This document shows, piece after piece, positions 12,871-45,085 of a DNA stretch of 64,000 nucleotides; the stretch's first letter is position 1, and each line of letters opens with the position of its first letter. The DNA comes from Bacteroidales bacterium (GTDB taxonomy: Bacteria > Bacteroidota > Bacteroidia > Bacteroidales > UBA932). Location of the stretch: positions 36,625-100,624 of the forward strand of contig JAPXOZ010000004.1 in assembly GCA_033811195.1 (NCBI GenBank), read 5' to 3'. A program made the position numbers and the translations under genes. Below the pieces are notes generated by a model. The model searched no databases, had not been told where the DNA came from, and worked only from the letters and a program-made list of their open reading frames with translations.

Positions 12871-12900
12871 TGTTCAGTAACACCTCCTTTTTTGTGGGCA

Positions 12901-12908
12901 CAAATATA
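12901..12908 (-). promoter_or_regulatory. Candidate -7 promoter box TATATTTG for rpsU
   Basis: The reverse complement of CAAATATA lies 31-38 nt upstream of the rpsU ATG (12870). Same box and spacing as upstream of parE. Confidence 0.45.
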
Positions 12909-12949
12909 ATCAGGTTTTTTGGTTTGACAAATTATTGGAGAAAAAAATG

Positions 12950-12957
12950 TATTTTTG
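12950..12957 (+). promoter_or_regulatory. Candidate -7 promoter box TATTTTTG for hutU
   Basis: TAnnTTTG match 32 nt upstream of the hutU ATG (12989). Confidence 0.4.
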
Positions 12958-12988
12958 TAATAAACATTTAAAAGAACGACGATATTAA

Positions 12989-15004: not shown

Positions 15005-15012
15005 TACACTTT

Positions 15013-16237: not shown

Positions 16238-16240
16238 GTT

Positions 16241-18763: not shown

Positions 18764-18768
18764 AATAA

Positions 18769-19344
18769 TTATGAAAGCCGTTCTATCAGGAGAGATATTT
18801 TGGCAAAAATTTCTTCAATCGTACCCTCTCCGTCAATTTCGTGGTATTTTCCCTGTTTCTTATAGTAATCGATTAAAGGCTCAGTCTTGGCGTGGTAAGT
18901 AGTTATACGATTTTGGATTATCTCATCATTCATGTCATCCTTGCGATCTTCAATCAGAGCGCGATGGTGGATCCTATCTTTGACCGTATCATCACTTATG
19001 ATAATGGAGATCACGCCGTTCACATCCATTTTGAGATTGTGGAGATGAGAGTCAAAAGCCGATGCCTGTGTGGTTGTACGGGGAAATCCGTCAAAAATAA
19101 ATCCTGACACATCCGGATTCTGGGCAAGCTCATTTTTGACTAATTTGAGGACCATTTCGTCAGGCACGAAATTGCCGTCGTCAATTAGGGCTTTGGCTAT
19201 GCGTCCGAGTTTGGTGCCGGCTTTTATTTCAGCACGAAGTAGATCTCCGGTGGAAATGTGCCTCAAATTATATTTTTCAACCATTAGCTTGGCTTGAGTG
19301 CCTTTACCAGCGCCAGGCGGGCCAAATATGATAAAATGCTTCAT
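18769..19344 (-). CDS. adk: Adenylate kinase
   Basis: The internal ATG at 19344 gives [17 protein letters not shown] (P-loop). The 43-codon N-terminal extension in the ORF track overlaps hpt and is not adk-like. Confidence 0.9.
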
Positions 19345-27692: not shown

Positions 27693-30185
27693 TTGATCAT
27701 TATGAAGAATCTTGTTGGTATATTGAAAAAAGTGCTGCCTTATCTTGCTGCAGCCGCTATTTTTATCATCCTTGCCGTGGCCTACTGTCATCCCATACTT
27801 TCAGGTAAGGTACTTAGTCAGGGCGATATTTATCAGTGGAAGGGCATGGCACAGGAGGTGCAGGAATATTATGAAAATACCGGTAATATCTCAAAATGGA
27901 GTGGCTCTATGTTTTCGGGTATGCCGGCTTATCAGATAACAAACATTCCTCCTCAGAGCGGTTTTGCGGGATTTATGCAGAAGATTTGGACTTTCTTCTA
28001 TCAACTTGCTCATCTATTCTTCAATTCGGTACTTGGAATAATTATTGGATATTTTGTAGGATTTTACATACTTATACGTTCTTTCAATATCAATAAATGG
28101 CTCTCGATAGTAGGATCGATAGCCATTGCACTCTCATCCTATTTTTTCATCATCATAATGGCGGGCCATGAAACAAAAGCACTGACCCTCGGACTAATGG
28201 CCCCCGTGATAGCTGGATTCTATCTTATATTTCGCAAGAAATACCTCTGGGGTATATGCTTAACGATGCTTTTTACTGCATTGGGTCTCTACAGGCATCC
28301 ACAGATGTCATACTATATCTTCATGATGATCGGCGTACTTGCCATAGCGGAGATCTGGTGGCATATAAAAGAGAAACGCTTCCGGGATATGGTGGTTGCC
28401 ATCTCTCTCTTCGTACTTTCAGTGCTCATAGGTGCTGGTACAGGTTATGGCAACTACAGGTCCAATGCCGAATATATGAAGGAGACTATGCGTGGAGGGC
28501 ACTCGGAGCTTGTGAGGGAGGAGGCAGGCGTCACTTCAAACAACGACTCGGGACTTAGCTTTGATTATGCCACCCAGTGGAGCTACGGCATTGGTGAAAC
28601 CTTCACTCTGATGATACCCAACTTTAAGGGAGGATCCTCCGGTTCGGATATTGGTACAGACTCACGTTTAGCGAAGGCTCTTAGATCTAAGGGGGTAGAT
28701 CCGCAAGCGGTAAAATATTACACCTCCGTGGCCCCGACATATTGGGGAGAGCAACCTTTCACAGCCGGACCGGTCTATGTGGGAGCTATAGTTTGTATGC
28801 TATTCGTGCTTGGGCTCTGTATTGTAAAGGGTCCTTACAAGTGGGGATTGTTGATTGCATCTCTATTTTCGGTCCTTCTTTCCTGGGGACACAATTTCGA
28901 GTGGTTTTCAAAACTCTTTTTTAATTATTTCCCTCTCTACAGCAAGTTCAGGGCGGTATCCTCGATACTCGTGGTAGCGCAGATAGCGATGCCGTTGCTT
29001 GGATTTATCGCATTAAGAGAAATATTAGAGAAGAGAGTCGATGCTCGGAAACTCAAGAGGGCACTTCTGATAGCAACCGGTGTCACCGGTGGCATTTCTC
29101 TCTTTTTCGCACTTTTCGGCGGACTTATTTTTAGCTTTACCTCTTCCGGAGATGCCTATATGGCAGCCCAATTCCCCGATTGGTTTATGGAGGCACTCAT
29201 TGACCAGAGGGCTGCGATGTTTCGTAGTGACTGCTTTAGATCCCTTGCATTCATCCTGCTTGCGTCACTCGTTATTCTGCTCTTTGCAAAACAAAAAATC
29301 AAACCGGCGATTTTCACCCTCATTCTTGGAGTTCTGATTGTTGCCGATATGTGGCCGGTTAATAGAAGATACTTCAATGAAGATCATTTTGTCACTAACA
29401 AGGAGCAAGACTCTTATTTTCAAAAATATGCTTATGAAGAGGAAATACTCAAAGATGTTGATCCCCACTTCAGAGTATTGAATCTTACCACCAACACTTT
29501 CAACGAGTCCCGCACTTCATATTATCTAAAGTCCATAGGCGGCTATCATGCAGCTAAATTACGCAGGTACCAAGATCTGATAGACGAGCACCTCACACAG
29601 ATGAATATGAAGGTGATCAATATGCTCAACACCAAATACATAATTGTTGAGCAGGATGGAGCTCACGTACCGATGCTAAATGAAGAGCATTTGGGTAATG
29701 CCTGGTTTGTGGATGAAATAATTTTGGTCGAGACCCCAAATCAGGAGAGCGATGCACTGAGGGTTATTGACCCTGCTACTGTTGCTGTAACAGATAGGAT
29801 ATTTGCCGACTTTGTCACTGACCCTGTGACACCTGCAGATCCTTCCGCTGTCATAGAATTAACATCCTATGCCCCTGACGTACTGACTTATACAACCAAA
29901 TGTGCATACGATAAAATTGCAGTCTTCTCGGAAATCTATTATCCCTACGGTTGGCAAGCCTACATTGATGGCACTCCGGTGGAACATTTCCGTGTCAACT
30001 ACCTTCTCAGAGCTCTCAATATACCCGCAGGTAAACATGATATTCGTTTTGAATTCCGCCCTGATTCGGTGACAAAAGGCAATATGATCTCTGCAGTGTT
30101 TACTTTTGTGATGGTGACTATTATTGTCGCTTCGATAGTGCTTTCTTGTTTGAGAATTTATAGAAAAAGAGAAGAAAAAGAGTAG
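27693..30185 (+). CDS. YfhO-family polytopic membrane protein (GT-C-like glycosyltransferase fold)
   Basis: 830 aa with more than 12 N-terminal transmembrane segments, a large extracytoplasmic C-terminal domain and a final transmembrane segment. This architecture and size match the bacterial YfhO family. 3-nt gap after the kinase gene. Confidence 0.65.
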   Translation: MIIMKNLVGILKKVLPYLAAAAIFIILAVAYCHPILSGKVLSQGDIYQWKGMAQEVQEYYENTGNISKWSGSMFSGMPAYQITNIPPQSGFAGFMQKIWTFFYQLAHLFFNSVLGIIIGYFVGFYILIRSFNINKWLSIVGSIAIALSSYFFIIIMAGHETKALTLGLMAPVIAGFYLIFRKKYLWGICLTMLFTALGLYRHPQMSYYIFMMIGVLAIAEIWWHIKEKRFRDMVVAISLFVLSVLIGAGTGYGNYRSNAEYMKETMRGGHSELVREEAGVTSNNDSGLSFDYATQWSYGIGETFTLMIPNFKGGSSGSDIGTDSRLAKALRSKGVDPQAVKYYTSVAPTYWGEQPFTAGPVYVGAIVCMLFVLGLCIVKGPYKWGLLIASLFSVLLSWGHNFEWFSKLFFNYFPLYSKFRAVSSILVVAQIAMPLLGFIALREILEKRVDARKLKRALLIATGVTGGISLFFALFGGLIFSFTSSGDAYMAAQFPDWFMEALIDQRAAMFRSDCFRSLAFILLASLVILLFAKQKIKPAIFTLILGVLIVADMWPVNRRYFNEDHFVTNKEQDSYFQKYAYEEEILKDVDPHFRVLNLTTNTFNESRTSYYLKSIGGYHAAKLRRYQDLIDEHLTQMNMKVINMLNTKYIIVEQDGAHVPMLNEEHLGNAWFVDEIILVETPNQESDALRVIDPATVAVTDRIFADFVTDPVTPADPSAVIELTSYAPDVLTYTTKCAYDKIAVFSEIYYPYGWQAYIDGTPVEHFRVNYLLRALNIPAGKHDIRFEFRPDSVTKGNMISAVFTFVMVTIIVASIVLSCLRIYRKREEKE

Positions 30186-30190
30186 TTCCA

Positions 30191-31690
30191 ATGGGAGTGA
30201 TAATCAGACAGAGTTTTAAAGGAACGTTGGCAAACTATCTTGGTGTTGCCATAGGTTTCTTTACTACTTTTTTCGTTCTTGTACGTTATCTTACTCCCGA
30301 AGAAATTGGTTTGACAAGAGTGTTGTTGGATGCGGCGGTTTTGCTTGCCGGTCTTTCACAACTGGGTACCGGTTCATCCACGATGAGGTTTTTCCCCTAT
30401 TTTAAGGATGAAAAAAATAAGGACAACGGTTTCTTTTTCTGGACCTTGATTATTCCGCTGGTCGGTTTTGCCATCTTTACTCTCTTGTTCTTCATATTCA
30501 AGAGACCGGTGTGTGATTTCTTCCAGGAAAAATCACCTTTGTTTGTAGATTACTATCATTTGGTTGTTCCTATAGCATTCTGGATACTTTATAACACGGT
30601 ATTTGAATGCAATGCCAGTGTGTTGGAAAGAATCGCGGTGCCGCGATTCATAAAAGAGGTCGGTTGCAGGATATTTTTGCTTGGCCTTTATCTTTTGTAT
30701 GGATTCAAAGTAATCAGTTTTGAAAGGGTACTGGAAGGCTTTGCCGTTACCTATTTTTTGTGCACATTATTGAATATCGGGTATCTTATATCATTGAAGA
30801 GAGTCTCCTTCAAACCCAATTTCAAATATGTGACACCAAAAATCCGTAAAGACTTTACATTATATACGCTCTTTTTGGTAACGGCTGCTATTGCAGGTTT
30901 GATTACGCCGAGCATTAATACCTTTTTTGTAACAGCAAAGATGGGACTGGAGTCAACGGGAGTTCTAACAATTGCGATATATATTGTAGCGATTATCGAG
31001 ATGCCCTATCGATCTTTGGGTGTGGTTTCACTTCCTTCGATATCTCAAGCTATGAAGGATGGGGATCTACAGCGCACAAATCAGTTATGCAAGAGCGTTT
31101 CCCTGCATCAGTTACTGATATCCTCGTTCATTTTTATGGTGATATGGATGAATATAGACCTTTTCTTTGAGTTGCTTCCCAATGGAGACAAATATTCCGG
31201 CGCAAAAATGATTATTGCTATTCTCGGATTGTCGAGAATCCTTCATTCTTCACTAAGTATAGCCACTTCTGCATTGGGATTTTCGAAACATTACTATTTT
31301 TCTCTAATCTTCACCTTTGTTCTGACTTTTACGGCAATTGTGTTGAACAACAAGTTGATTCCAATTTATGGAATTGATGGCGCTGCGTGGGCTACTCTAA
31401 TATCTTATCTCGTAGCTTATTTATTTCTTCTGCCTTTTCTTTACTTTACCACAAAAGTCTCAATTCTCTCTAAAGGACAGATAATAGTATTTTTAATTTT
31501 TATTATTATGCTGCTAATGGAGATATTTTGGAATAGGTTGTTTAAGATACCTTCTTCAATGGGACTAAAAATAACCTTTTACTTAGTAAAAACATTGGTA
31601 ATCTGTTCTTTGGGAATAGCCGGAATATACTTTAACAAAGTTTCCGTTGATATAAATAGAATTATAGAGAAGGTCTTTAGGCGAAAGTAG
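30191..31690 (+). CDS. Oligosaccharide flippase family protein (MOP/Wzx-like)
   Basis: 499 aa with about 14 transmembrane segments, the typical Wzx-type length and topology. 5-nt gap after the YfhO gene. Confidence 0.7.
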   Translation: MGVIIRQSFKGTLANYLGVAIGFFTTFFVLVRYLTPEEIGLTRVLLDAAVLLAGLSQLGTGSSTMRFFPYFKDEKNKDNGFFFWTLIIPLVGFAIFTLLFFIFKRPVCDFFQEKSPLFVDYYHLVVPIAFWILYNTVFECNASVLERIAVPRFIKEVGCRIFLLGLYLLYGFKVISFERVLEGFAVTYFLCTLLNIGYLISLKRVSFKPNFKYVTPKIRKDFTLYTLFLVTAAIAGLITPSINTFFVTAKMGLESTGVLTIAIYIVAIIEMPYRSLGVVSLPSISQAMKDGDLQRTNQLCKSVSLHQLLISSFIFMVIWMNIDLFFELLPNGDKYSGAKMIIAILGLSRILHSSLSIATSALGFSKHYYFSLIFTFVLTFTAIVLNNKLIPIYGIDGAAWATLISYLVAYLFLLPFLYFTTKVSILSKGQIIVFLIFIIMLLMEIFWNRLFKIPSSMGLKITFYLVKTLVICSLGIAGIYFNKVSVDINRIIEKVFRRK

Positions 31691-31691
31691 A

Positions 31692-33233
31692 CTATTCCTC
31701 TTCTACCGGCAACCGGTACTTGTTTCTGAATATTTTTCCCAATATCAATCTCATCGCGGAGACTGTGAAAAGCAGAAGTTTTTTTGAGCCTAGAATTTTT
31801 TGGTAATTAACTCCGTGAGCTTTGAAACCGCAGATCGAAATTGAGTAGGTAGTGTAGTCAAAATAGTTATACATCTGTTCTTCAACTGTGGCTCTCTTGA
31901 AGTCCATAATGTAATATCCGAATTTCTGAATAAAAAGATTGTTCTTTGGCTCAATAGGGGACTTAATCATAGGTATGATTTCCTCTTTTGTTTTTGGAAT
32001 ATGACAGATATCGGCGTAATAGTAGAGTGATGCTCCAAGAAGAATAACTGGTTTATGCCAATACGCAGCCTCTATTCCCATAGTAGAACCGAATACCACG
32101 ACCTTGTCGGCAGCATCCATAAGTGCGTAAGTGTCAATTCTGTCGGTAGCATGGATAACAGTGATATTGGCATATCGTTCACTCAACTTGTATAAGTCAG
32201 TATGGTATTTATAGCCAATCTTGGAAAGATTTGGATGCACTCTGAGGTAAAAGTGATAATCCTTAATCCCCTTGAAGTGGTCCAGAATGTATTTTAGACC
32301 CTCTAATTGTGTGTCAAAGAGAGCTAGTTTGTCAAAATCGCCGCCTACTGCAGCAAATTCATCCTCCGATGAATTGAATATGGCAATGTTGTGTTTGGAA
32401 TCATCCCAGTCCTCGGGAAGAAGCCCTAATTCCTGATGAGTAGTATAAATTATATCTCCTGCACGTTTTTTCTCCCTCCTTTTTATAAAGAAAGAGTTTG
32501 CTATTGATATCTTCTCTTCTTCTTCCAGAGGGGAGTTATTCCACATCTCAGCAATAACTTTGTGTCGATTTTTGATGTTGTGGGATAAATAATTCTCAAA
32601 CACTACTTTGAACGACTTGTTGGGGTTGTGACTGGGATGGACTTCCATCACATCTACAGGAACATTTAAAGTCTTACAAGTATCGAAAAGTACCCTTGTC
32701 TCAAGTAATCGTCCATTGAAGAGTACGACCTTGTCAGGCTTCAATTCTGAAAGAAGTTTGTAAGATGCATCTGTCAACGTGCGGCCTTGATCAAGAAGGT
32801 GGTCAAAATAGGGTTTACTCTCCGGGGTAATCTTTGGGTGGAGATTTCTGGTATTGTCAATATAAAATGATATTGCTGCCAATCCGATATTTGCATTACG
32901 GTAGACAATGTTGCGAAATTCTCTTGATGAAGTGTAACTCCAACCGGTTCCACCGGTTTTAGACTCCGCATAGTCGGCAAAACTGATCCTCTTTATATTC
33001 TTGTCAAGCACGGAAAGGGCCTTGGATGTCCATAATTCACAAGTTATACAAAGTCCCTTATTGGCTTGTGGGTTGCCTGAACAACAGTTCATGATATGTT
33101 TGCCACATTTTTTGCCGCAAGTCAAAAAATAAACTTCATGACCCTCATTAGCCACCTTCTGGGCCTCATCGCTAAGAACACCATAAGCAATCTTATTGTA
33201 TAATATGCAGGTTGAATAAAAGAGAATTTTCAT
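31692..33233 (-). CDS. KpsC/KpsS-like (Capsule_synth-type) putative glycosyltransferase; candidate CMP-nonulosonate-dependent transferase
   Basis: 513 aa with an HP motif (FYLRVHPNL) and the downstream block VVVFGSTMGIEAAYWHKPVILLG, which resembles the S-T-x-G-x-EA...KPV signature of KpsC/KpsS-type enzymes. N-terminal Cys cluster CGKKCGKHIMNCCSGNPQANKGLCITC. Last gene of the nonulosonate operon. Confidence 0.45.
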   Translation of the reverse strand: MKILFYSTCILYNKIAYGVLSDEAQKVANEGHEVYFLTCGKKCGKHIMNCCSGNPQANKGLCITCELWTSKALSVLDKNIKRISFADYAESKTGGTGWSYTSSREFRNIVYRNANIGLAAISFYIDNTRNLHPKITPESKPYFDHLLDQGRTLTDASYKLLSELKPDKVVLFNGRLLETRVLFDTCKTLNVPVDVMEVHPSHNPNKSFKVVFENYLSHNIKNRHKVIAEMWNNSPLEEEEKISIANSFFIKRREKKRAGDIIYTTHQELGLLPEDWDDSKHNIAIFNSSEDEFAAVGGDFDKLALFDTQLEGLKYILDHFKGIKDYHFYLRVHPNLSKIGYKYHTDLYKLSERYANITVIHATDRIDTYALMDAADKVVVFGSTMGIEAAYWHKPVILLGASLYYYADICHIPKTKEEIIPMIKSPIEPKNNLFIQKFGYYIMDFKRATVEEQMYNYFDYTTYSISICGFKAHGVNYQKILGSKKLLLFTVSAMRLILGKIFRNKYRLPVEEE

Positions 33234-33254
33234 ATAACTTCAGCCGCAAACAAC

Positions 33255-34253
33255 TTAAATGATGTCCAGGATTGTACCACCCCATGAGTAACCTACCCCG
33301 AATCCGGAAAGCAAAATTTTGCCTTTTAAAACACCGGATTTTCGTGCTTCTGTTAATGCTATAGGTATTGTGGCAGAGACCGTGTTGCCTACATTCTCCA
33401 TAAAGTAGTAGAAGCGTTTTTCATCGATCCCCATCTTCTTTCTGAGAAAGTTAAGCATGAATTTGTTGGCCTGATGAAAGACAAACAACCCGATCTCTTC
33501 TTTCTCCAATTGATTTTTTACCAGAAGATCATTCACCATCGTAGGTACTACGCTCTGCGTAAAATTGAAAATAGCACTACCATCCATATAGAGAAAGTCA
33601 TCGGAAACGGGATTTCCATTTTCATCATAACTGAATTTGCCGGATAACTCTTTCTGCCTGAAGGCACCTGTTTTAATAATAAGATTTGAAGCTCCGGCAC
33701 CGTCCGTACCAAGAATGAATTCTCTAATTTTCGCAAAACCATCTGCAGAAACAAGGGTGGCTGCAGATGCATCACCGAAAATTGTTCGGTTACCCTTATC
33801 TTTAGAATGTATATGTTTAGTATATGTTTCTGATGTAATAAGAAGTACATTGCTGGCAATTCCCGATAATATGAGTCCTTTTGCTAGAGCAAGACCGTAT
33901 ATGTATCCCGAACAGCCAAGGTTGAAGTCTAATGCGCCTGCAGATGTGGGCAAGTTTAGCCTATCCTGAAGAATGCATGCGGTAGTGGGGAGAAAATAAT
34001 CCGGTGATTGTGTGCAAAGCATCAAAAAATCTATATCAGTCGGATTGATATTGTTTTCTGCAAACAATTTTTCAGCCACCTTAAATGCCATATCTCCGGC
34101 AGTCTGGTCTGCCGCAGCAATGTGTCGCTGAGAGATACCTATTTTCGAAGAAACCTTTTCAACACTCCATTCGGGAAACTCCTTAACCAGTTCTTCGTTG
34201 GTTAAAATTGTCTCTGGTAGATAATATGATATTGCTTTGATATATGCTTCCAT
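33255..34253 (-). CDS. 3-oxoacyl-ACP synthase III (FabH-like) family protein
   Basis: KAS III Cys-His-Asn triad contexts are visible: NLGCSGYIYGL, VFHQANKFM and NVGNTVSATIP. Confidence 0.8.
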   Translation of the reverse strand: MEAYIKAISYYLPETILTNEELVKEFPEWSVEKVSSKIGISQRHIAAADQTAGDMAFKVAEKLFAENNINPTDIDFLMLCTQSPDYFLPTTACILQDRLNLPTSAGALDFNLGCSGYIYGLALAKGLILSGIASNVLLITSETYTKHIHSKDKGNRTIFGDASAATLVSADGFAKIREFILGTDGAGASNLIIKTGAFRQKELSGKFSYDENGNPVSDDFLYMDGSAIFNFTQSVVPTMVNDLLVKNQLEKEEIGLFVFHQANKFMLNFLRKKMGIDEKRFYYFMENVGNTVSATIPIALTEARKSGVLKGKILLSGFGVGYSWGGTILDII

Positions 34254-34255
34254 AA

Positions 34256-35014
34256 CTACATGCAGGTATAACCTCCGTCAATTATTATATTAGAGCCTGT
34301 CATCCAGGCAGTGGCATCAGAGAGCAGATAAACTGCAGTCCAGGCGACTTCTTCCGGCTTGCCATATCTCCCTATAGGGTAATTTAACCGATCCTTTTCC
34401 AGTTGCTCCTTCGACACAGTTCCGTCAGCCATAATGGCGGTGTCGACCATACCCGGACTTATACAGTTAACTCTGATTCCTTTAGGAGCCAACTCCAGAG
34501 CAAGAGATTTGGACATTGCCGCTATGGCACCTTTGGATGCGGAGTAACTTGCAATACCGATGGCTGATACAACTCCTCCTGAAATTGAGGATATGAAAAC
34601 CACAGATGCATTTCTGTTCAGCTGTTTGCTTTTAATGAAATGCTGGGTAAGCATAGTGGGTGCAAAGAAATTAACTTCCATTACAGAATCCACGAACTCC
34701 CTGTTATTGAAACGGAACGGTACATGGTTAATGATACCGGCGCAGTTTACCAGACCGTCAATATTGCCGGAAAACTTTGTCAGGGAGTCGAGTTGTGAAG
34801 CATCTGTCAGGTCTGCGGCATACATTGCATTGTCTAGGCCATCCATCATCGATAAGGTTTCGGCCAGACGAGTCTCATTTCTTGCCGTAATAAGCACTTG
34901 TGCGCCCATTCGGGAACATTCTACTGCAATAGCTCTTCCAATACCTGAGGAGGCTCCGGTAACCAGAATTCTCTTTCCGGTCAATGAAAATGGATTATAG
35001 GATTCGGTGTTCAT
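34256..35014 (-). CDS. SDR-family oxidoreductase (3-oxoacyl-ACP reductase FabG-like)
   Basis: TGASSGIGRA cofactor motif and the YSASKGA (YxxxK) active site. Confidence 0.8.
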   Translation of the reverse strand: MNTESYNPFSLTGKRILVTGASSGIGRAIAVECSRMGAQVLITARNETRLAETLSMMDGLDNAMYAADLTDASQLDSLTKFSGNIDGLVNCAGIINHVPFRFNNREFVDSVMEVNFFAPTMLTQHFIKSKQLNRNASVVFISSISGGVVSAIGIASYSASKGAIAAMSKSLALELAPKGIRVNCISPGMVDTAIMADGTVSKEQLEKDRLNYPIGRYGKPEEVAWTAVYLLSDATAWMTGSNIIIDGGYTCM

Positions 35015-35033
35015 ACTTTAATTAATAATAGTC

Positions 35034-35264
35034 CTATTTTCTACTTTCGACAAGATCGAAAAGATCCCGTATTGTTTTGGAGTTGCGGATATCATCACCT
35101 TTTATTTGGACACCGTATTGTTCATCCACCATAGCGATTATTGTCAGAGCAAGGAAGGAAGACCATTCATCCAGTGTCTTAAACTCTGTCTCAGCTTTGA
35201 ACTCAGAAGAATCAGTTTCATCAAACTGAAAAGCGAAATTTTCTACAAACTTTTGAATATCCAT
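35034..35264 (-). CDS. Acyl carrier protein (stand-alone, glycan-locus type)
   Basis: 76-aa acidic four-helix-sized protein. Its LDEWSSFLALTIIAMVDEQYG block matches the (D/S)S-x-x-x-L phosphopantetheine-site context of polysaccharide-locus ACPs. Confidence 0.7.
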   Translation of the reverse strand: MDIQKFVENFAFQFDETDSSEFKAETEFKTLDEWSSFLALTIIAMVDEQYGVQIKGDDIRNSKTIRDLFDLVESRK

Positions 35265-35322
35265 AATTAAATATTGTTATACTGAACTGCAATTGCAGTC
35301 TGTTTATTCGACTTTGCTTATA

Positions 35323-35964
35323 TCAGAATTTTAAAATTGTTGCAGGATTTCCGACGTAAGAATTACCATCCTTTACTTTAGTCATCAATACACTTGATGC
35401 TCCAAGACGTACTTGATTGCCAATTTTCATTTGTTGAAGTACAACACTTGAAACGCCGAAAAAATTACGATTGCCGATTGATACATTTCCGGCTATTCTG
35501 ACTGAAGGCATCAGTGCATTGAAATCACCTATTGTTACATCATGCCCAATATTTATCATTCCATTGAAAATGTTGAAGTCTCCTATTTTTACATCGCATG
35601 AAAATAGGCAACCGGTGCAAATAATATTGCCTTTTCCAAATGAAATATTGTCTTTATCAAGGAATACCGTGTCCGGAGAAAATAGGTTTGGGAAAACGAT
35701 GTTCTTATTTTTGATTTCGCTTGCAACCTTAAAAACAGATTCGGGATTGCCAATGGCAATCACAACATTTAATTCCTCCTCCCATGCATTCAATTCAGGA
35801 ATATCACCAAGCATCCTGCCATATTTACTCTCTTCTCCAATCTCCTTGTCCCGATTGAAAAAGCCAATGAAATTCCAGATAGGTTCCTTTTCATTGATGC
35901 GGTTTATTAGACAGGCTACTTCTTTTGAAAATCCGCCTCCTCCATATATTGCAATATCCTTCAT
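35323..35964 (-). CDS. NeuD/PglD-family sugar N-/O-acyltransferase (left-handed beta-helix)
   Basis: The start at the ATG 35964 gives MKDIAIYGGGGFSKEV (NeuD/PglD N-terminal Rossmann-like domain). The C-terminal half is made of hexapeptide repeats (IGDFNIF.., IGHDVTIGDFN.., IAGNVSIGNRNF..). Confidence 0.75.
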   Translation of the reverse strand: MKDIAIYGGGGFSKEVACLINRINEKEPIWNFIGFFNRDKEIGEESKYGRMLGDIPELNAWEEELNVVIAIGNPESVFKVASEIKNKNIVFPNLFSPDTVFLDKDNISFGKGNIICTGCLFSCDVKIGDFNIFNGMINIGHDVTIGDFNALMPSVRIAGNVSIGNRNFFGVSSVVLQQMKIGNQVRLGASSVLMTKVKDGNSYVGNPATILKF

Positions 35965-36036
35965 GATAAAAAACTTGTTCAAACAAACCACAAATATACT
36001 ATTAAACTGTGATTAATGCTATCAATTTAGTCCACC

Positions 36037-37083
36037 CTATCTTTCCACTAAATGCTTTACAAGTTCGTTGGCTTTCTTATAGTCCTCGTTTTTACCGATG
36101 TCTATCCAGTAACCGGTGATAGGAAACCTGACAACTTTTGAGCCACGTGAAATCAAAAGTTCAATAAGATCAGTAGCGTCAAAATACTCATTATCTGGTA
36201 TTAGTGAGAGCATTTCTTTCTTTATCAGATATAGACCGGCATTTGCATAGTAGTTGTAGGTCGGCTTTTCAGCAAGAGCCTTAATGGAATCTTGTTCAAT
36301 CTCAAGGATTCCGTACGGAATGGAAACGGAGTAGGGGATAGCAGCGACAGACATATCTGCTTCACTTCGAACAAAGTCGAGGTAGAAATCCTCGTAATTG
36401 ATGTTGGTAAAAAGATCTGAATTCATTACCAATATCGTGTCGTTATGGAATGTTTCCACAAACTTAACTGACCCTATGGTTCCAAGAAATTTTGGCTCTC
36501 TAATGGTATTGATTGTTACGCCGTTTCTTGGCTTGGAGAAGTGCTCTTCCAAGTGTTCTTTAAGATAATTTACTGTAACGGAAATATGTTTTATACCGTA
36601 TGATAGTAAACGGTCAATATTGTGATCAATGATTGTTTTATCTCCCACTTTGAGAAGAGGTTTGGGTGTAGCATCCGTCAAAGGTCTTAGACGTTCTCCT
36701 TTGCCACCGGCCATCAACACAGCATCTACAGGGAGCATAGATTTTTGTTTCGCAGTGTCTATGATTCCAACCAGCCTCAACTCCTCATCAAGTATTGGAA
36801 TGACCTTTATGCCCCTTTTTTTAATTTGATGAAATGATTCTACTGTCTCGCTTTCATTAGATGCATAGAATGAGAAGTCGTTGTTCATAGCAGTTGTGAC
36901 GCAGTCAGTCAAAGCTCCTCCTTCAACCAGTCTTCTGCGGATATCTCCGTCGGTGATTGTGCCGACAACCCTGTTATAGGGGTCAGTCACAAACAAAGTA
37001 AGTCCGATAACAGTAAAATCGTTAAGCAACTTAAGCGCATCCAGTATTGTAGCTGAATTGCTTATGGTATTATTCTTTATCAT
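36037..37083 (-). CDS. ptmE: CBS-domain sugar-phosphate nucleotidyltransferase (PtmE-like)
   Basis: Tandem CBS region in the N-terminal half, then an NTP-transferase domain (VLMAGGKGERLRPLTDATPKPLL). I prefer the ATG at 37083 (MIKNNTIS), which avoids overlap with the upstream SDR gene. Confidence 0.65.
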   Translation of the reverse strand: MIKNNTISNSATILDALKLLNDFTVIGLTLFVTDPYNRVVGTITDGDIRRRLVEGGALTDCVTTAMNNDFSFYASNESETVESFHQIKKRGIKVIPILDEELRLVGIIDTAKQKSMLPVDAVLMAGGKGERLRPLTDATPKPLLKVGDKTIIDHNIDRLLSYGIKHISVTVNYLKEHLEEHFSKPRNGVTINTIREPKFLGTIGSVKFVETFHNDTILVMNSDLFTNINYEDFYLDFVRSEADMSVAAIPYSVSIPYGILEIEQDSIKALAEKPTYNYYANAGLYLIKKEMLSLIPDNEYFDATDLIELLISRGSKVVRFPITGYWIDIGKNEDYKKANELVKHLVER

Positions 37084-37087
37084 TGTA

Positions 37088-37831
37088 TTATATTGCTGTC
37101 CAGCCGCCATCCACGGCTATATTTTGTCCGGTAATATATTTAGCCCCGTCTGACACAAGGAAGAGGCAGATTGGAGCGATATCATCGGGATTGCCCATCC
37201 GTTTCATTGGACATTTGTAGGTGTATTTCTTAACAAATTCCTCTCGCTGATTGTCAAATATGCCTCCTGGAGAAACACAGTTGACTCTGACATTATACTT
37301 TCCAAAATAAGAGGCTAGATAACGCGTAAAGTTGATTATTGCACCTTTTATTGCGCAATATTCGCCCGGAGAAGTGCCATTGTAATCTTCATATATAGTA
37401 AAATCATTTCCAACAATTCCATAGATGGAGCCTAAGTTTACTATAGAGCCATATTTCTGCTCCTTCATAACATTCAAGACCTGCTGATTGAGGTAAAAAA
37501 CCGAATTTAGCTGAAGACTAATATTATTTTCCCAATGGGAAAAAGGAGATTCTTCGAAATAGTACTTTCCCCAATCTTTTGTACGAGGGTAGGCAGCATT
37601 AACAAGTGCATCAATTCGCCCATATTTTTCCACAACAAACCTTATCAGAGCATCAATTGATGAATTGTTGGCAAGATCAAGCTTGAAAGTATTATTTTCC
37701 GAGAAGGTTTCATTGGCCAAATCCGCATCTATTACAATAGAATTTCTCTCTTTGAACTGTTTTACAATTTCTCTTCCGATCAATCCTTTGCCGCCGGCAA
37801 CAATTACTATTTTATTCTCAAGGTCTTTCAT
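37088..37831 (-). CDS. SDR-family oxidoreductase (PtmA-like)
   Basis: Rossmann motif VAGGKGLIGRE and an SDR Y/K active-site region (YCAIKGA). Located inside the nonulosonate operon. Confidence 0.65.
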   Translation of the reverse strand: MKDLENKIVIVAGGKGLIGREIVKQFKERNSIVIDADLANETFSENNTFKLDLANNSSIDALIRFVVEKYGRIDALVNAAYPRTKDWGKYYFEESPFSHWENNISLQLNSVFYLNQQVLNVMKEQKYGSIVNLGSIYGIVGNDFTIYEDYNGTSPGEYCAIKGAIINFTRYLASYFGKYNVRVNCVSPGGIFDNQREEFVKKYTYKCPMKRMGNPDDIAPICLFLVSDGAKYITGQNIAVDGGWTAI

Positions 37832-38750
37832 AATCCAGACATAATTTCAAAATCTTATTTGCAAATATAATATCATTGAAAGAATCTTTCTCATTATTTG
37901 AGACAAGATCGAAGAAGTACCTCATCTGCTCGGCATATGTATCAGCACCACTCTGCTCTGACTGGAAAATGACAAACCCATTAGAATCGGTAATAGAGTT
38001 TTTAGCCAAGTCCACCTTCCATGTTACGGAATCAAAGAGAATCTCTATCTCTCGTTTATAATCCCTTCTAAAGTAATTGAGTGTTATGTCGCAGATAAAA
38101 TCTTCATAAAATAGAAGATATTTTGCATAATCTATTGCGTCAATCTTAAGAGATGATTTGCTACGACAAAAGGCCCTGTGACTCTCAGGCACTCCAAATA
38201 TCCAACATATATAGTCTAATTCGTGAATCAGATCGAGATGAACACCTCCTCCCATTTCCGGTTTAGCGCTATATGAGTCCTTAAAATCGGTTCCGGGACG
38301 CCATTCAGGAAGATAGGAGCCACAATAGACATTCACTTCATTGATTTTTCCGGGTGTATTTCCCGATTCGATGCATTCCTTTAAATATTGAATAACTTCA
38401 AGGAATCGAAGGTTACAGGCCACGTATGACAATATTCTACTCTCTTTAATGCTATTTATGAGACCGTCGATGGGCGAGGAAGCTACCGGTTTTTCTATAA
38501 AGAGTGGAATTTTGAATTCCAAAAGTTTTTGTATGGTGTTTTTGTGCTCTGATGTTGGATTGGATATTATGGCAAAATCAAAACCGATATTTGATGCCTC
38601 ATCAAATGAGTAAAGATTTGTGATTCGGTCATAGGTCTGCGCATTGTGTTGTGACCTCAATGCGTAGATGGAGGCATTGCTGTCAATAGAGCGTATTGCT
38701 GCAATGTGTTTTTTTGCTATAGAGCCAAGTCCGATAATCAGAATTTTCAT
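37818..38750 (-). CDS. Gfo/Idh/MocA-family oxidoreductase (PtmF-like)
   Basis: N-terminal MKILIIGLGSIAKKH dinucleotide fold and the EKP block (LFIEKPVA) typical of Gfo/Idh/MocA enzymes. Confidence 0.65.
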   Translation of the reverse strand: MKILIIGLGSIAKKHIAAIRSIDSNASIYALRSQHNAQTYDRITNLYSFDEASNIGFDFAIISNPTSEHKNTIQKLLEFKIPLFIEKPVASSPIDGLINSIKESRILSYVACNLRFLEVIQYLKECIESGNTPGKINEVNVYCGSYLPEWRPGTDFKDSYSAKPEMGGGVHLDLIHELDYICWIFGVPESHRAFCRSKSSLKIDAIDYAKYLLFYEDFICDITLNYFRRDYKREIEILFDSVTWKVDLAKNSITDSNGFVIFQSEQSGADTYAEQMRYFFDLVSNNEKDSFNDIIFANKILKLCLDYERP

Positions 38751-39478
38751 TATAATTCAATTCGTTTGGTTGAGAGCAGAAAGGAGAGATAGTCAAAGTC
38801 GTGAGGTTCGTCCAGATCAAAACAGATATGGTTCATCAAATAACATTTTGTTTTATTTGTAAGAGCTGTGGATGTATCCGTATCGAAGAAGTAGCGACGA
38901 TAAACATAAATAGAGGCATTTATATCGTAAACTTTAGGCGCAGCTTGCCTTGAGAGATATCTGCCCTCAATCACGAGCTTACAGTAACCGTCCGGTTTTT
39001 CCTCAACCTGGTTAAAATAAGGATTTCTAGCACAGTGATTAACCGAAAAGACCGTCATCAGGTCATTGTCCTTATTAAACATAGTGAGACAGTTGATTAT
39101 GTCATCAGTTGTTCTTATCGGTGAAGTAACATCCAGATCCACTATGAAATCATATTTACAGCCATTCTTCGTTTCCGAGTGGAACACAAGATCTCTAATA
39201 GCATCTATCTTCCCGCAGGTGTCGTTGGCCAGATAAGCCGGACGTTGATAATCGGATTTCAAGCCGAATTCTGAGGCGCATGTTCTGATTTGCTCCGAAT
39301 CGGTTGAGAGCTCAATATCAACCCTGCATTCGGATAATTTCTCTTTTACCCGTTTGGCTGCCTCAATAGTATATGCTATGAGGGGTTTTCCACCCACTTC
39401 CTTGATATTCTTACCTGGGATGCCTTTTGAACCTCCTCTTGCGCAGATTGTAATAAGTATATTGCTGTTATTTTTCAT
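38750..39478 (-). CDS. legF: Acylneuraminate cytidylyltransferase family (CMP-nonulosonate synthetase, LegF/NeuA-like)
   Basis: ICARGGSKGIPGKNIK N-terminal signature of CMP-sialate/CMP-Kdo-type cytidylyltransferases; 242 aa. Start and stop each share 1 nt with the neighbouring genes. Confidence 0.75.
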   Translation of the reverse strand: MKNNSNILITICARGGSKGIPGKNIKEVGGKPLIAYTIEAAKRVKEKLSECRVDIELSTDSEQIRTCASEFGLKSDYQRPAYLANDTCGKIDAIRDLVFHSETKNGCKYDFIVDLDVTSPIRTTDDIINCLTMFNKDNDLMTVFSVNHCARNPYFNQVEEKPDGYCKLVIEGRYLSRQAAPKVYDINASIYVYRRYFFDTDTSTALTNKTKCYLMNHICFDLDEPHDFDYLSFLLSTKRIEL

Positions 39479-40638
39479 TATTTCAAATCATAAAAACTCT
39501 TTTTAGTGCAGTTTTGAAGATCATAAGATGAAATGATTTCGTAAATGGTCTCTGCACACCTCTCCTTTTCGTATGGGTTGATACTCTTCTCAGAAAGTGT
39601 CTGATGTTCCGGGGATAAAACATGCTCTATACCTTTTGATATGGATTCTTTGTCATTTGCGCAGTGAACCACACTCCGGGAAGCGATACGACCTTTCTGT
39701 CTCTCGCCAATATTTAGAGTGGGTATGCCAAATGAGGGGACTTCAACAATTCCGCTTGAGGAATTGCCAACAATCGCCTTGACATACTGCAGCGCTGAAA
39801 GATAGCGTTTTACTCCAAGAGAAGGGAAGGCTTTGGAGTTATCCGGATGTTGTTTTGTATACTGTTCGATTGCATGCACAATTGCTTTATGCCCAGTATC
39901 GGAATTGGGCATTGTGAATATTACTCTAAGGTTCGGATATTGCGCGATTGCTGCAAACAATTCATAAATATCTCTTTTAGGGTCACCTCCGAGAGTTTCA
40001 GGATGATATGTGACAAGAATGGTGCGGTCGTCAAATCTAAACTCAAGAGAATTCTCAAGTTCCTCTTTATTCATCAATGGTATCTGCTTGATGTTTTCCA
40101 CTCCTAAGGAGCCTACATTAAAGACTCTTTCCGGATTTTCACCGAGTTGTATGACACGTTTTCGATACTCTTCACATGACGTGAAATGAAGTGAACTCAT
40201 TTTTGTGATAGAGTGACGGATTGCATCGTCATAAGCTCCTTCGGTGACCTCTCCTCCATAAAGGTGGGCTATCGGAATCCTGGAAATCAATGCTCCGGTG
40301 GCAGCTGAAAGCATCTCATATCTGTCCCCGAGAATGACGACTATATCAGGTGTAAGTTCCGAATAAGCTATTCCAAATCCTTCTAGTCCCTTTGACATTG
40401 CCTTTAATGTGGAAACAGGCAAGTCTTCAGCAACTTCGTCAATAATCGGAACCTTTTTGTCAATTTTAAATCCATCACTCTCGATTTCCCGATATGTCTC
40501 ACCAAACTTTGGGGATAGATGCATATTAGTGGCAATAATCTGCAATTGCAAGGTTGAATCCTCCTGCACAAGGCGCATAAGGCGACTTAAAAGGCCATAC
40601 TCGGCACGGGATCCTGTAACAAAGCAGATTTTTCTCAT
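39478..40638 (-). CDS. legG: Hydrolysing NDP-N-acetylhexosamine 2-epimerase (NeuC/LegG family)
   Basis: MRKICFVTGSRAEYGLL N-terminus and the GDRYEML block typical of NeuC-type hydrolysing 2-epimerases; 386 aa. Confidence 0.8.
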   Translation of the reverse strand: MRKICFVTGSRAEYGLLSRLMRLVQEDSTLQLQIIATNMHLSPKFGETYREIESDGFKIDKKVPIIDEVAEDLPVSTLKAMSKGLEGFGIAYSELTPDIVVILGDRYEMLSAATGALISRIPIAHLYGGEVTEGAYDDAIRHSITKMSSLHFTSCEEYRKRVIQLGENPERVFNVGSLGVENIKQIPLMNKEELENSLEFRFDDRTILVTYHPETLGGDPKRDIYELFAAIAQYPNLRVIFTMPNSDTGHKAIVHAIEQYTKQHPDNSKAFPSLGVKRYLSALQYVKAIVGNSSSGIVEVPSFGIPTLNIGERQKGRIASRSVVHCANDKESISKGIEHVLSPEHQTLSEKSINPYEKERCAETIYEIISSYDLQNCTKKSFYDLK

Positions 40639-41639
40639 ATCTCAATCAATTGGTCTTCTAAAAAATCCTGTTTAGCGGTTAGTCCTATAACTTCATCCCA
40701 TCTCATTGGAGAGATACCATTTCCAGGTCGTTTTACAGTGAGGTTTTCTTCTGTAAATTTCTCTCCTGCCTTAATGTTTTTTGCTGCAACAATGCTTTTT
40801 CTTGCAATGGCAATATTCTTTCGTTCACTTGTGGTTACAATCTTTTTATCGCTACCTAGGGCTATTTCGATATTTCTAATAGCATTTACCATTGCTTTCA
40901 ACTCATGCGGTTCGAGTGAGGCAACATGGTCGGGTCCGGGCAATGTCTTGTCAAGAGTAAAGTGCTTCTCAATAATTTCAGCCCCCATGGCTACCGCTGC
41001 TATTGGAACTTCAATTCCTAGAGTATGATCAGAATAACCAACCCTCACACAAAAATTCTCTTTGAGGGTATTCATTGCTCTGAGATTGACATCCTGCATA
41101 GGAGTGGGATACTCGGTATTGCAATGGAGAAGTGAAATGCTTTTCAAAGAGAGTCCATTGTCTGTCAAGACTATCAATGCATCTTCGATCTCATCTGTTC
41201 TACACATTCCGGTAGACATTATCACAGGTATGCCCAGTTTCGCAATTTTTCTTAGATAGGGTAGATTTGTTATTTCTCCTGATGGAATTTTAAAGTAGTC
41301 CATATCCAATCCACTAAGAAAATATACGGATGGTAAATCAAAAGGTGTCGATAAAAAACTGATCCCTATTTTGTCGCAATAACTTTTCAATTCGGTGAAC
41401 TCGTCAAATGTAAGCAAGAGCTTTTCAATCATTTCAAGTTGACTTTCCTGATTACCGATATTCTTCTTTTGATAATCTGCCATTTCTGCAAACTTGGAGA
41501 CCAGTAATCTTGGAATGCCTGTCTGAAACTTCACATAGTCGGCACCTGCTTCCTGCGCAGCCTCTGCAAGTTGTTTTGCCATTTCAAGACTGCCATTGTG
41601 ATTAACACCTGCTTCAGCTATGATGATGACTTTGTTCAC
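40635..41639 (-). CDS. legI: Nonulosonic acid synthase (NeuB/LegI family)
   Basis: IIAEAGVNHNGSLEMAKQL N-terminus, a TIM-barrel NeuB domain and a C-terminal SAF/antifreeze-like domain (VKRPGNGISP). Confidence 0.85.
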   Translation of the reverse strand: MNKVIIIAEAGVNHNGSLEMAKQLAEAAQEAGADYVKFQTGIPRLLVSKFAEMADYQKKNIGNQESQLEMIEKLLLTFDEFTELKSYCDKIGISFLSTPFDLPSVYFLSGLDMDYFKIPSGEITNLPYLRKIAKLGIPVIMSTGMCRTDEIEDALIVLTDNGLSLKSISLLHCNTEYPTPMQDVNLRAMNTLKENFCVRVGYSDHTLGIEVPIAAVAMGAEIIEKHFTLDKTLPGPDHVASLEPHELKAMVNAIRNIEIALGSDKKIVTTSERKNIAIARKSIVAAKNIKAGEKFTEENLTVKRPGNGISPMRWDEVIGLTAKQDFLEDQLIEI

Positions 41640-42808
41640 TTGATTTTATTTTTATAGGAAGAATTAAAGTTTATACTACTCGGAATATTTACAACCCTAT
41701 CCGCAAACCATTCGGTGTTTTTAAGTCCGTTTGTCTGGCAATTGAGGAACATTGGGAGCCGATTCATCAGCTCCCAAATGGGACGTGTCATAATTCCATT
41801 GTTGTTGGTATATTGGAGGAAACCGTCACGGGTATCCCGATCTTTCGTAATGACTGCATTGAGCCAATAGTTTGATCGGCAGCTTGCAGGTTCGGAAAAG
41901 AATTCAAACCCTTCGATCTCTTTGAAAAAGTCCGAATAATGGGAGGCTGTTTCGCGTTTGTTGAGCACAAACTCTTCAAGCCTCTCCATCTGGGCACATC
42001 CAAGGGCGGCATTGATATTTGGCATACGGTAATTATAGCCCACTTCGTCGTGATAGAATTCCCATTTATGGGGCCTCTTTGCCTGCGTAGTGAGGTGTTT
42101 TGCCCTGGCGGCAAGTACTTCATCATTGAAAAGGAGCATTCCTCCGCCTCCGGTAGTAATGGTCTTGTTACCGTTGAACGAGAGTATGCCTATTAGGCCG
42201 AAAGTACCGGTATGTTTTCCTTTATAAAATGAGCCAAGGCTCTCGGCGGCATCTTCGACCAGTTCCAGATGCCATTTGCTGCAAACCGCCATAAGTTCAT
42301 CGAGATGGACGGGATGACCGAATGTGTGCATCGGCACACAGCATCGGATCCGGCGACCGGTACTCTTGTTATAACACTCATTTCCGCGTAGCTCGGCGTT
42401 CTCCTCAAGCCAATATTCTGCCGCAGTGGGGGAGAGCCCCATTGTATCGCGGTCAACATCAATGAAGATCGGGTGGGCGCCGATATAACTGATAGCATTG
42501 CAGGTTGCAACAAAGGTGAGAGCTTGAGTGATCACTTCATCCTCGCGCTTTACGCCTGCTAGCATCAAGGCCAGATGTAGTGCATTGGTGCCGTTTACAC
42601 ATACCACAGCTTTTTCGGCGCCGGTGTAATTGGCCACCATTTCTTCAAATTGATCCACAAATTTTCCCACACTGGAGACGAAAGTGGAATCAATGCACTC
42701 ATCCAGATATTTCTTCTCATTACCGGTGAAGACCGGTACACTGAGAGGAATGAAATCCTGAGAATTATAGAGTTCCCTGATATATGATGCAATCCTGCTA
42801 TACATCAC
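41636..42808 (-). CDS. legC: DegT/DnrJ/EryC1/StrS-family PLP-dependent sugar aminotransferase (LegC-like)
   Basis: 390 aa, aminotransferase class V-like. Active-site lysine context SFNGNKTITTGGGGML. 4-nt overlaps on both sides. Confidence 0.75.
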   Translation of the reverse strand: MMYSRIASYIRELYNSQDFIPLSVPVFTGNEKKYLDECIDSTFVSSVGKFVDQFEEMVANYTGAEKAVVCVNGTNALHLALMLAGVKREDEVITQALTFVATCNAISYIGAHPIFIDVDRDTMGLSPTAAEYWLEENAELRGNECYNKSTGRRIRCCVPMHTFGHPVHLDELMAVCSKWHLELVEDAAESLGSFYKGKHTGTFGLIGILSFNGNKTITTGGGGMLLFNDEVLAARAKHLTTQAKRPHKWEFYHDEVGYNYRMPNINAALGCAQMERLEEFVLNKRETASHYSDFFKEIEGFEFFSEPASCRSNYWLNAVITKDRDTRDGFLQYTNNNGIMTRPIWELMNRLPMFLNCQTNGLKNTEWFADRVVNIPSSINFNSSYKNKIK

Positions 42809-42811
42809 TCG

Positions 42812-44020: not shown

Positions 44021-44049
44021 AAGGATTATCGCATTTTGTTCCTAACTTT

Positions 44050-44057
44050 CAAAGGTA
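44050..44057 (-). promoter_or_regulatory. Candidate internal -7 promoter box TACCTTTG ahead of the nonulosonate module
   Basis: The reverse complement of CAAAGGTA lies 30-37 nt upstream of the dehydratase ATG (44020), inside the only sizeable intergenic gap (80 nt) of the 16-gene locus. Confidence 0.35.
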
Positions 44058-44100
44058 GTAATAATTTCTTGCAAATCATTGACGACGCGCGTAAAACCGC

Positions 44101-45081: not shown

Positions 45082-45085
45082 AAAA

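Follow-up and report, generated by a model that had tools for sequence, protein, structure and literature searches.

The 64,000-nucleotide stretch of the 111-kb NCBI contig JAPXOZ010000004.1 analysed here (the window), which derives from a metagenome-assembled genome (MAG) of an uncultured gut or digester Bacteroidales bacterium, contains four consecutive genes that appear to form an N-acylation cassette within an operon for legionaminic acid (Leg) biosynthesis. They encode a predicted sugar N-acyltransferase (AT), a dedicated acyl carrier protein (ACP), a ketoreductase (KR) of the short-chain dehydrogenase/reductase (SDR) family and a 3-oxoacyl-ACP synthase III (KAS III). We consider it somewhat probable that these genes constitute, in full, a self-contained module replacing the LegH step of a GDP-type Leg operon. 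The clade to which AT belongs, its linkage to the ACP, the lack of a canonical LegH in the operon, a set of control Leg loci and a natural relative of the locus lacking the cassette (L088) together indicate that AT most likely carries out the LegH step with a 3-hydroxyacyl-ACP, and the product would then be a 7-N-(3-hydroxyacyl) Leg. An earlier sequence-only reading of this DNA had delimited the four genes and placed three of them directly downstream of AT, an arrangement that we confirmed on the minus strand:

35323 to 35964, minus strand: AT, predicted sugar N-acyltransferase with a PglD_N domain and a hexapeptide left-handed beta-helix (Pfam, NCBIfam and cassette-AT profile)
35034 to 35264, minus strand: dedicated ACP, 76 aa (family profile; predicted attachment site Ser36)
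34256 to 35014, minus strand: FabG-like SDR ketoreductase (KR), 252 aa (adh_short_C2, E 3.4e-56; KR domain)
33255 to 34253, minus strand: KAS III of the FabH type, 332 aa (NF006829; Cys114-His260-Asn290)

Every enzymatic step that we propose is based on family membership and gene context. Housekeeping enzymes would attach phosphopantetheine to Ser36 of the private ACP and charge it with malonate, and the KAS III would condense the malonyl-ACP with a short acyl-CoA primer, most simply acetyl-CoA. Reduction of the 3-oxo group by the SDR would yield 3-hydroxybutanoyl-ACP or a close homologue, from which the beta-helix AT would acylate the 4-amino group of GDP-2-acetamido-4-amino-2,4,6-trideoxy-glucose, the product of LegB and LegC. 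LegG, LegI and LegF would convert this intermediate into CMP-Leg5Ac7(3-hydroxyacyl), and a 513-aa putative transferase encoded downstream of the cassette would install the sugar on the glycan.

The association between AT and the ACP is widespread in Bacteroidota. A genome scan with AT recovered at least 528 cassette loci, mostly from Bacteroidales, and the cassette is present in human-gut Bacteroides, Parabacteroides, Prevotella and Alistipes, among other members of the phylum. AT has 1717 database relatives, the best of which are proteins of Bacteroides and other Bacteroidales that are 55–64% identical to it. The best 80 loci, one per species (AT homologues 50–90% identical), were analysed. 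An ACP-family profile match was found within 78 of these 80 loci, both exceptions being short contigs, and an ACP of about 76 aa lay directly downstream of AT in 65 of the 78 loci having at least 400 bp of sequence past AT. The same AT-ACP-KAS III-KR architecture recurs in genome loci L008–L087; among the ACP-positive loci with enough flanking sequence, 34 contained one KAS III and one KR, and 25 contained two KAS III and one KR. A very common capsule module of Bacteroides, represented by L004–L007 from human-gut metagenomes (locus positions about 9379–19240), comprises PglC, a cassette-clade AT, a 79-aa ACP, two SDRs, a split transketolase, an AMP-ligase, LuxE, LuxC and DegT; the AT-ACP pair is thus retained there beside entirely different acyl-making genes. 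This persistence of the pair with differing acyl genes indicates that the conserved unit is AT plus ACP, which argues that AT draws its acyl group from the ACP. The functional tie between AT and its adjacent private ACP, previously proposed from the window alone, is therefore supported by comparative genomics (ACP in 78/80 loci), and we regard it as likely that AT uses the adjacent ACP.

AT comprises 213 aa from its ATG codon; an upstream GTG start at position 35991, given by the open reading frame (ORF) tool, was rejected because the homologues begin with MKDIAIYG. Both the PglD_N and Hexapep domains of Pfam are present, the score on TIGR03570 (NeuD/PglB/VioB) is 155.9 bits, slightly under the cutoff of 160.8, and the hexapeptide region shows weak similarity to LpxD and LpxA. 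As a control, we used 80 Leg loci from metagenomes (0.91 Mb) anchored on PtmE homologues. None of the 80 gave a match to the ACP profile. Among the 35 control loci showing both LegC and NeuB, 31 matched the LegH profile, typically through a canonical LegH encoded between the two, and three of the remaining loci carried ATP-grasp or FemAB-like genes in this legC-legI slot. Full-length canonical LegH proteins scored 180–305 bits on the LegH profile and 26–138 bits on the cassette-AT profile, whereas the median scores of the cassette ATs were 114 and 326 bits, and those of the window AT 121 and 373 bits, respectively. By these profile comparisons, the window AT belongs to a distinct ACP-linked clade and is not a LegH by descent. 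Its gene also follows ptmE, unlike canonical legH genes, which lie between legC and legI. A profile search revealed no other LegH/PglD-like gene in the 64-kb window, where AT is the only candidate for the LegH step.

The ACP yields no Pfam PP-binding match and only weak matches to NCBIfam ACP models (E 1.5e-4; 21.5 bits against a cutoff of 84). The profile of its family (38 members) matches 60+ solved ACPs, the best being 2lml_A (E 1.5e-7), labelled 'putative acyl carrier protein', which may be compared with GmACP3 of Geobacter metallireducens, a specialised ACP of LPS loci. Ser36, in the motif LDEWS-S36, is invariant in the 38 sequences of the family and aligns with the DSL serine of 2lml and 2ehs, and phosphopantetheine attachment is predicted at this residue; T17 and A44 are likewise invariant in the alignment. 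A tryptophan stands two residues ahead of the attachment serine in both proteins (WDS in 2lml, WSS in the window ACP), and a homologue 91% identical to the window ACP carries the NCBI name 'acyl carrier protein'. The possibility that the reading frame arose by chance was rejected, given its conservation with an invariant serine and the lack of background matches in the control loci.

The SDR displays the motifs TGASSGIG (residue 19), NCAG (90), SSISG (142) and YSASK (157), and falls below all FabG equivalog cutoffs (167 bits against 222 for NF009466; 156 against 298 for TIGR01830). By these scores it is FabG-like and not a housekeeping FabG, and it is predicted to reduce 3-oxoacyl-ACP to 3-hydroxyacyl-ACP. 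The KAS III contains both expected domains (PF08545, E 1.2e-18; PF08541, E 1.8e-26), exceeds the cutoff of NF006829 (256.4 bits against 249) and lies under that of TIGR00747 (232.6 bits against 292.1). Of the solved proteins, the Burkholderia KAS III 3gwa, itself uncharacterised, is its best relative (344 bits); E. coli FabH scores 130 bits. Residues C114, H260 and N290 align with C112, H244 and N274 of E. coli FabH, and the Cys-His-Asn triad is kept in all 102 cassette-linked KAS III homologues aligned; the idea that these proteins are non-condensing acyltransferases was rejected on this basis. The sequence-only reading had already pointed to the DEWSS phosphopantetheine context of the ACP, to a FabG-like SDR with TGASSGIG and a YxxxK motif, to an intact Cys-His-Asn triad in the KAS III and to the lack of FabD and phosphopantetheinyl transferase (PPTase) genes in the locus. 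The first three agree with the alignments and motifs described above, and no PPTase or FabD family match was found among the locus genes scanned (26.7–49 kb of the window).

The cassette constitutes the 3' part of a single co-directional operon, placed after ptmE. The ORF list places every gene of the region on the minus strand, with transcription running from high to low coordinates. AT, ACP, KR and KAS III occupy positions 12 to 15 of the operon, between the last two of the following genes, which are given in order of transcription:

46142 to 47068, minus strand: family 2 glycosyltransferase (GT2), first of the co-directional block (PF00535, E 6.6e-29)
45086 to 46141, minus strand: 351-aa family-less protein with a predicted tandem-GNAT fold, candidate acyltransferase; likely start at 46126 (346 aa); no Pfam or NCBIfam model
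44101 to 45081, minus strand: NodB-type (Polysacc_deac_1) deacetylase (PF01522, E 3.5e-23; TFDD and HGYNH metal-site motifs in the translation)
42812 to 44020, minus strand: LegB-like NDP-GlcNAc 4,6-dehydratase (Polysacc_synt_2; PF02719, E 1.2e-37), whose homologues open the control Leg loci
41636 to 42808, minus strand: LegC-family aminotransferase (TIGR04181, 573.2 bits against a cutoff of 420)
40635 to 41639, minus strand: nonulosonate synthase LegI/NeuB (TIGR03569, 490.3 bits against a cutoff of 399.65)
39478 to 40638, minus strand: hydrolysing NDP-sugar 2-epimerase LegG/NeuC (TIGR03568, 455.6 bits against a cutoff of 235.9)
38750 to 39478, minus strand: LegF-like CMP-nonulosonate synthetase (CTP_transf_3; PseF model, E 2.4e-25, under cutoff)
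37818 to 38750, minus strand: Gfo/Idh/MocA oxidoreductase in a PtmF-like position (Pfam GFO_IDH_MocA)
37088 to 37831, minus strand: PtmA-like SDR (NF050062 FlagModPtmA, E 5.7e-52)
36037 to 37110, minus strand: PtmE-like protein of the GDP-sugar branch of the Leg pathway (CBS and NTP_transferase domains)
31692 to 33233, minus strand: 513-aa Capsule_synth-like protein, putative CMP-nonulosonate-dependent glycosyltransferase (weak: PF05159, E 1.1e-6; NF046086, E 2.3e-6, far below cutoff)

The cassette genes are separated from one another by 58, 19 and 2 bp, from ptmE upstream by 72 bp and from the downstream gene by 21 bp. By gene content, with homologues of LegB, LegC, LegG, LegI, LegF and PtmE, the operon is a complete GDP-type Leg pathway. 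The legC and legI genes overlap by 4 bp, which leaves no slot for a LegH gene between them in the window.

Close relatives of the locus provide natural variants of this arrangement. The same Leg operon including the cassette, again with no canonical LegH, is found in L001–L003 and L009, where AT is 90% identical to that of the window, and in L008 (89%). The stop codon of ptmE and the start codon of AT overlap in L008, where the cassette is translationally coupled to ptmE. L088 (Ga0116174_10000797) shows 82–87% DNA identity to the window on both sides and lacks window positions 36048–33262; it is the same locus minus a 2.8-kb cassette, and only about 50 bp separate its ptmE from the 513-aa gene. 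No acyltransferase was seen in the visible part of the L088 locus, though its Leg genes appear intact. At the L088 junction, a few bases resemble the 3' end of the KAS III gene, and the cassette might therefore have been lost by deletion rather than gained by insertion.

Comparison of the Leg-linked ATs (window, L008 and L009) with the 77 other cassette ATs revealed six substitutions (A9G, G13S, R14K, D37N, D38R and I95F) at positions that are 86–100% conserved in the other 77. Five of them fall within the N-terminal nucleotide-sugar-binding domain, and the majority of canonical LegH proteins likewise have G9 and K14. This pattern is suggestive of adaptation to the GDP-linked Leg intermediate, possibly through a switch from a UDP- to a GDP-sugar; it is only suggestive because a single lineage is involved.

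The closest described precedent is found in the same phylum. The O-antigen genes of the fish pathogen Flavobacterium psychrophilum encode two KAS III (WfpC, 333 aa, and WfpE, 350 aa), an ACP (WfpD, 76 aa), a KR (WfpF, 242 aa) and a PglD homologue (WfpG, 216 aa) (PMC6519341). WfpC-G were predicted to build a 3,5-dihydroxyhexanoyl group and to move it from the ACP to UDP-Qui2NAc4NH2 (Cisar et al. 2019, PMC6519341), and this acyl group has been chemically proven on the Qui2NAc4N of the O-antigen (PMC6519341). The gene kit and the protein sizes match those of the window, and the acceptor corresponds to the Leg-intermediate sugar apart from the nucleotide. The F. psychrophilum system differs in having two KAS III, a C6 diol product and a UDP-linked acceptor, compared with a presumably GDP-linked one here, and its acylated sugar is used directly, beside a PglC-type transferase and with no conversion into a nonulosonate; the enzymatic assignments are predictions in both cases. 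The ACP-dependent principle is thus already in the literature for Bacteroidota, as a prediction. The sequence-only reading had been aware of no such defined route, nor of any in Bacteroidales, a view that does not stand against the same gene set predicted in F. psychrophilum and at least 528 cassette loci, mostly in Bacteroidales. New here are the finding that a Leg operon has captured the cassette and lost LegH, the extent of the association between AT and the ACP, and the module formed by the tandem-GNAT protein and the deacetylase.

Several points weigh against the assignment of AT to the LegH step with a 3-hydroxyacyl-ACP as donor. The best solved relatives of AT are distant (VioB, E 4.6e-20; PglD, about 1e-9) and all are acetyl-CoA enzymes, and a search for a sequence signature separating ACP use from CoA use in AT identified none. 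Furthermore, the usual context of the cassette is that of a bacillosamine-type first sugar: 40 of 70 loci have a gene for a PglC-like initiating transferase immediately upstream, and most have a DegT gene on the downstream side. Cassette and LegH are not strictly exclusive either, since L076 (Prevotella sp., 9346–15661) holds both: its cassette AT-ACP-KR genes are followed 3 kb downstream by genes for a LegC-like aminotransferase (624 bits), a PtmE-like protein and a LegH-like AT, which reaches 308 bits on the LegH profile. The apparently intact Leg genes of L088, with no acyltransferase beside them, imply that a trans-acting LegH may exist, which could also serve the window. The true client of the ACP in this operon, or its sole one, could be the tandem-GNAT protein. 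Finally, the assignment is made for an uncultured MAG from sequence and gene context. The earlier placement of AT at the LegH step thus stands in part: AT is the sole LegH-type gene in 64 kb and no canonical LegH accompanies it, but L088 leaves room for a LegH acting in trans.

In an alternative that we judge unlikely, the cassette makes NDP-Qui2NAc4N(3-hydroxyacyl) as a glycan residue in its own right and the Leg is Leg5Ac7Ac, acetylated by an enzyme encoded elsewhere. The PglC-like genes upstream of the cassette in 40/70 loci, the cassettes' own DegT genes, the Qui2NAc4N derivative of F. psychrophilum and the persistence of the L088 Leg genes with no local acyltransferase all speak for it. 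However, no PglC-type initiating transferase was found in the 64-kb window, nor a second aminotransferase or dehydratase, nor a canonical LegH. Moreover, the Leg operon itself houses the cassette, with ptmE on one side and the gene of the putative Leg transferase on the other; the cassette is translationally coupled to ptmE in L008, and the N-domain substitutions of its AT converge on LegH residues.

With respect to the acyl group, a single KAS III and a single KR, accompanied in the cassette by no dehydratase or enoyl reductase, suggest one condensation followed by one reduction, most simply yielding 3-hydroxybutanoyl. The view of KAS III plus KR as a minimal set for a short 3-hydroxyacyl group, put forward in the sequence-only reading, fits this gene content, and the notion of a builder of a long lipid anchor was rejected for want of the dehydratase and enoyl reductase. 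Whether the group at N7 is exactly 3-hydroxybutanoyl we regard as evenly balanced. The same mechanism could operate with a propionyl-, isobutyryl- or other acyl-CoA primer, or through repeated action of the KAS III, and deliver a non-C4 acyl group. Primer choice cannot be read from the KAS III sequence, which scores just 130 bits against E. coli FabH and 344 bits against the uncharacterised Burkholderia enzyme, and the occurrence of 34 one-KAS and 25 two-KAS loci suggests a correspondence between KAS gene number and chain length. A set of one KAS III and one KR nevertheless corresponds most simply to one condensation from acetyl-CoA, and F. psychrophilum uses two KAS III for its C6 3,5-diol; we rate a non-C4 product as distinctly unlikely. 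An R configuration should not be taken for granted, because the known examples from Bacteroidota have S centres: F. psychrophilum carries a (3S,5S)-dihydroxyhexanoyl group, and the nonulosonate of Tenacibaculum maritimum an (S)-3-hydroxybutyramido group (PMC3210612). As for the later pathway steps, C. jejuni PseI accepts a 4-N-3-hydroxybutyryl hexose substrate and forms the 7-N-acyl product (PMC13576459).

AT may not be the only user of the acyl-ACP. Its earlier designation as such a user is supported but incomplete, having overlooked the tandem-GNAT/deacetylase pair at the 5' end of the operon (46141–44101). The 351-aa protein matched no Pfam or NCBIfam family and nothing in a sequence search of solved structures, and has 367 homologues. 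Its AF2 (AlphaFold) model (pLDDT 90.9) retrieved N-myristoyltransferases, VipF and 3ddd in Foldseek (E ~2e-8, probability 1.00, TM 0.4–0.5), and the protein is predicted from this model to be an acyltransferase of tandem-GNAT (N-myristoyltransferase-like) fold, in a conserved family of about 345 aa. It shows no BLASTP similarity to the FemAB-like gene of control locus L099.

Six loci with tandem-GNAT homologues (within L168–L175) were examined. A small carrier protein and a KR, with a KAS III or an AMP-ligase, stand beside the gene in all six, one of which also encodes a FabD-like transacylase; the same NodB-type deacetylase follows in five of the six, and the homologues behind the tandem-GNAT genes of L168 and L170 score 520–550 bits. 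Leg loci account for four of the six, with the order LegB-LegC-[ACP module-tandem GNAT-deacetylase]-canonical LegH-LegI-LegG. L172 combines a cassette-type ACP (LEEWSSL) with a KAS III that scores 403 bits against that of the window. No separate ACP accompanies the pair in the window, so the cassette ACP may feed both acyltransferases, and the tandem-GNAT protein may be a second or alternative user of acyl-ACP. The adjacency of a deacetylase and an acyltransferase suggests removal of an N-acetyl group followed by re-acylation. The 2-N-acetyl group, whose nitrogen becomes N5, is the likeliest target; the pair would probably re-acylate the de-N-acetylated amine, most plausibly N5, from the same acyl-ACP. 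In lipid A synthesis, deacetylation by LpxC likewise precedes N-acylation by LpxD, although LpxD is a beta-helix protein and the second acyltransferase proposed here has a GNAT fold.

Such an arrangement opens two further interpretations. In the first, a single private ACP module serves both AT (at N7) and the tandem-GNAT protein (at N5, after de-N-acetylation), giving a doubly hydroxyacylated Leg, which we put forward as a tentative and rather doubtful proposal. In the second, AT is an ordinary acetyl-CoA-dependent LegH, the ACP, KR and KAS III feed only the tandem-GNAT protein, and the product is Leg5(acyl)7Ac. This would accord with L170, L172, L174 and L175, which hold the tandem-GNAT gene and the deacetylase inside an ACP module beside a canonical LegH, with the ACP family and KAS III that L172 shares with the window, and with the lack of a separate ACP for the tandem-GNAT protein. 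Yet AT belongs to a clade that is ACP-linked in 78/80 genomes and lies outside the LegH clade. Furthermore, L001–L003, L008 and L009 keep the cassette and have neither the tandem-GNAT gene nor the deacetylase, so the cassette is independent of the pair and the ACP module has a client without it. We consider this second interpretation the least probable of those discussed, and retain AT as the most likely LegH-step enzyme fed by the ACP.

Parts of the proposed scheme have parallels in other systems. LpxA and LpxD are acyltransferases with a left-handed beta-helix whose donor is (R)-3-hydroxyacyl-ACP; they differ from AT in using the housekeeping ACP and long chains, in their other N- and C-terminal domains and in lying outside the PglD_N clade. 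The rfbK-rfbO tetronate module of Vibrio cholerae O1 places a private ACP and acyl-processing enzymes in a glycan locus. Fatty acid synthase-like genes also occur in enterobacterial flagellin glycosylation islands (De Maayer and Cowan 2016, PMC4875605). Both share with the cassette a private ACP in a glycan locus and the decoration of an amino sugar, but they employ an AMP-ligase and LuxC/LuxE-type activation instead of KAS III condensation and are closer to L004–L007. The Leg pathway itself has been described for Campylobacter and for the Tannerella forsythia locus BFO_1063-1074 (Friedrich et al. 2017, PMC5378307). These organisms possess the same pathway set (LegB, LegC, LegG, LegI, LegF and PtmE) and an acyltransferase of the same fold; their LegH/PglD enzymes use acetyl-CoA and are encoded between legC and legI, whereas the ACP-linked AT of the window is encoded after ptmE. 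The enzymes installing non-acetyl groups on Leg and pseudaminic acid (Pse) have been regarded as largely unknown (Friedrich et al. 2017, PMC5378307). Within the library searched, no paper tied an ACP to Leg or Pse synthesis, and nothing relevant appeared on an ACP with a bacillosamine N-acyltransferase or on an acyl carrier for the T. maritimum O-antigen; papers on FabH and FabG sought in connection with O-antigens concerned fatty acids only.

The N-acyl groups of Leg and Pse define epitopes, phage receptors and immune recognition, and the locus offers a concrete candidate route for their non-acetyl N-acylation, in which a private ACP, a KAS III and a KR would feed a PglD-fold transferase. The window and L088 form a natural presence/absence pair for the cassette. 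Since the cassette occurs in hundreds of Bacteroidota species, one demonstration of its chemistry would annotate much of the capsule diversity of the gut. The tandem-GNAT/deacetylase module could explain the exchange of N5 substituents and, if the proposal of a shared ACP is true, tandem GNAT, deacetylase and ACP would represent a general, unrecognised route to Leg N5-acyl diversity in many metagenomic Leg loci.

Additional features of these loci were observed. In control loci with no LegH-type gene in the legC-legI slot, the slot holds ATP-grasp ligases in L091 (5830–6783) and L105 (6184–8333), a pyridoxal phosphate-dependent decarboxylase in L105 and a FemAB/Acetyltransf_6 protein in L099 (1273–6361), and N-acyl diversification seems to have a hot spot there. 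The 513-aa protein, a candidate legionaminic acid transferase, shows weak similarity to Capsule_synth and to the Tannerella BFO_1060 family, and its homologues are encoded right after the cassette in L008 and right after ptmE in L088. The G+C content is 0.37–0.41 across the glycan locus (window positions about 30000–46000) compared with 0.44–0.47 in the flanks, as is typical of horizontally exchanged surface-polysaccharide loci. Window positions 41593–40767, covering the 5' two-thirds of legI/neuB, have no nucleotide match to L088, the flanks being 82–87% identical; the NeuB of L088 is intact but divergent over this stretch, a pattern resembling a patch of recombination within the gene for the synthase.

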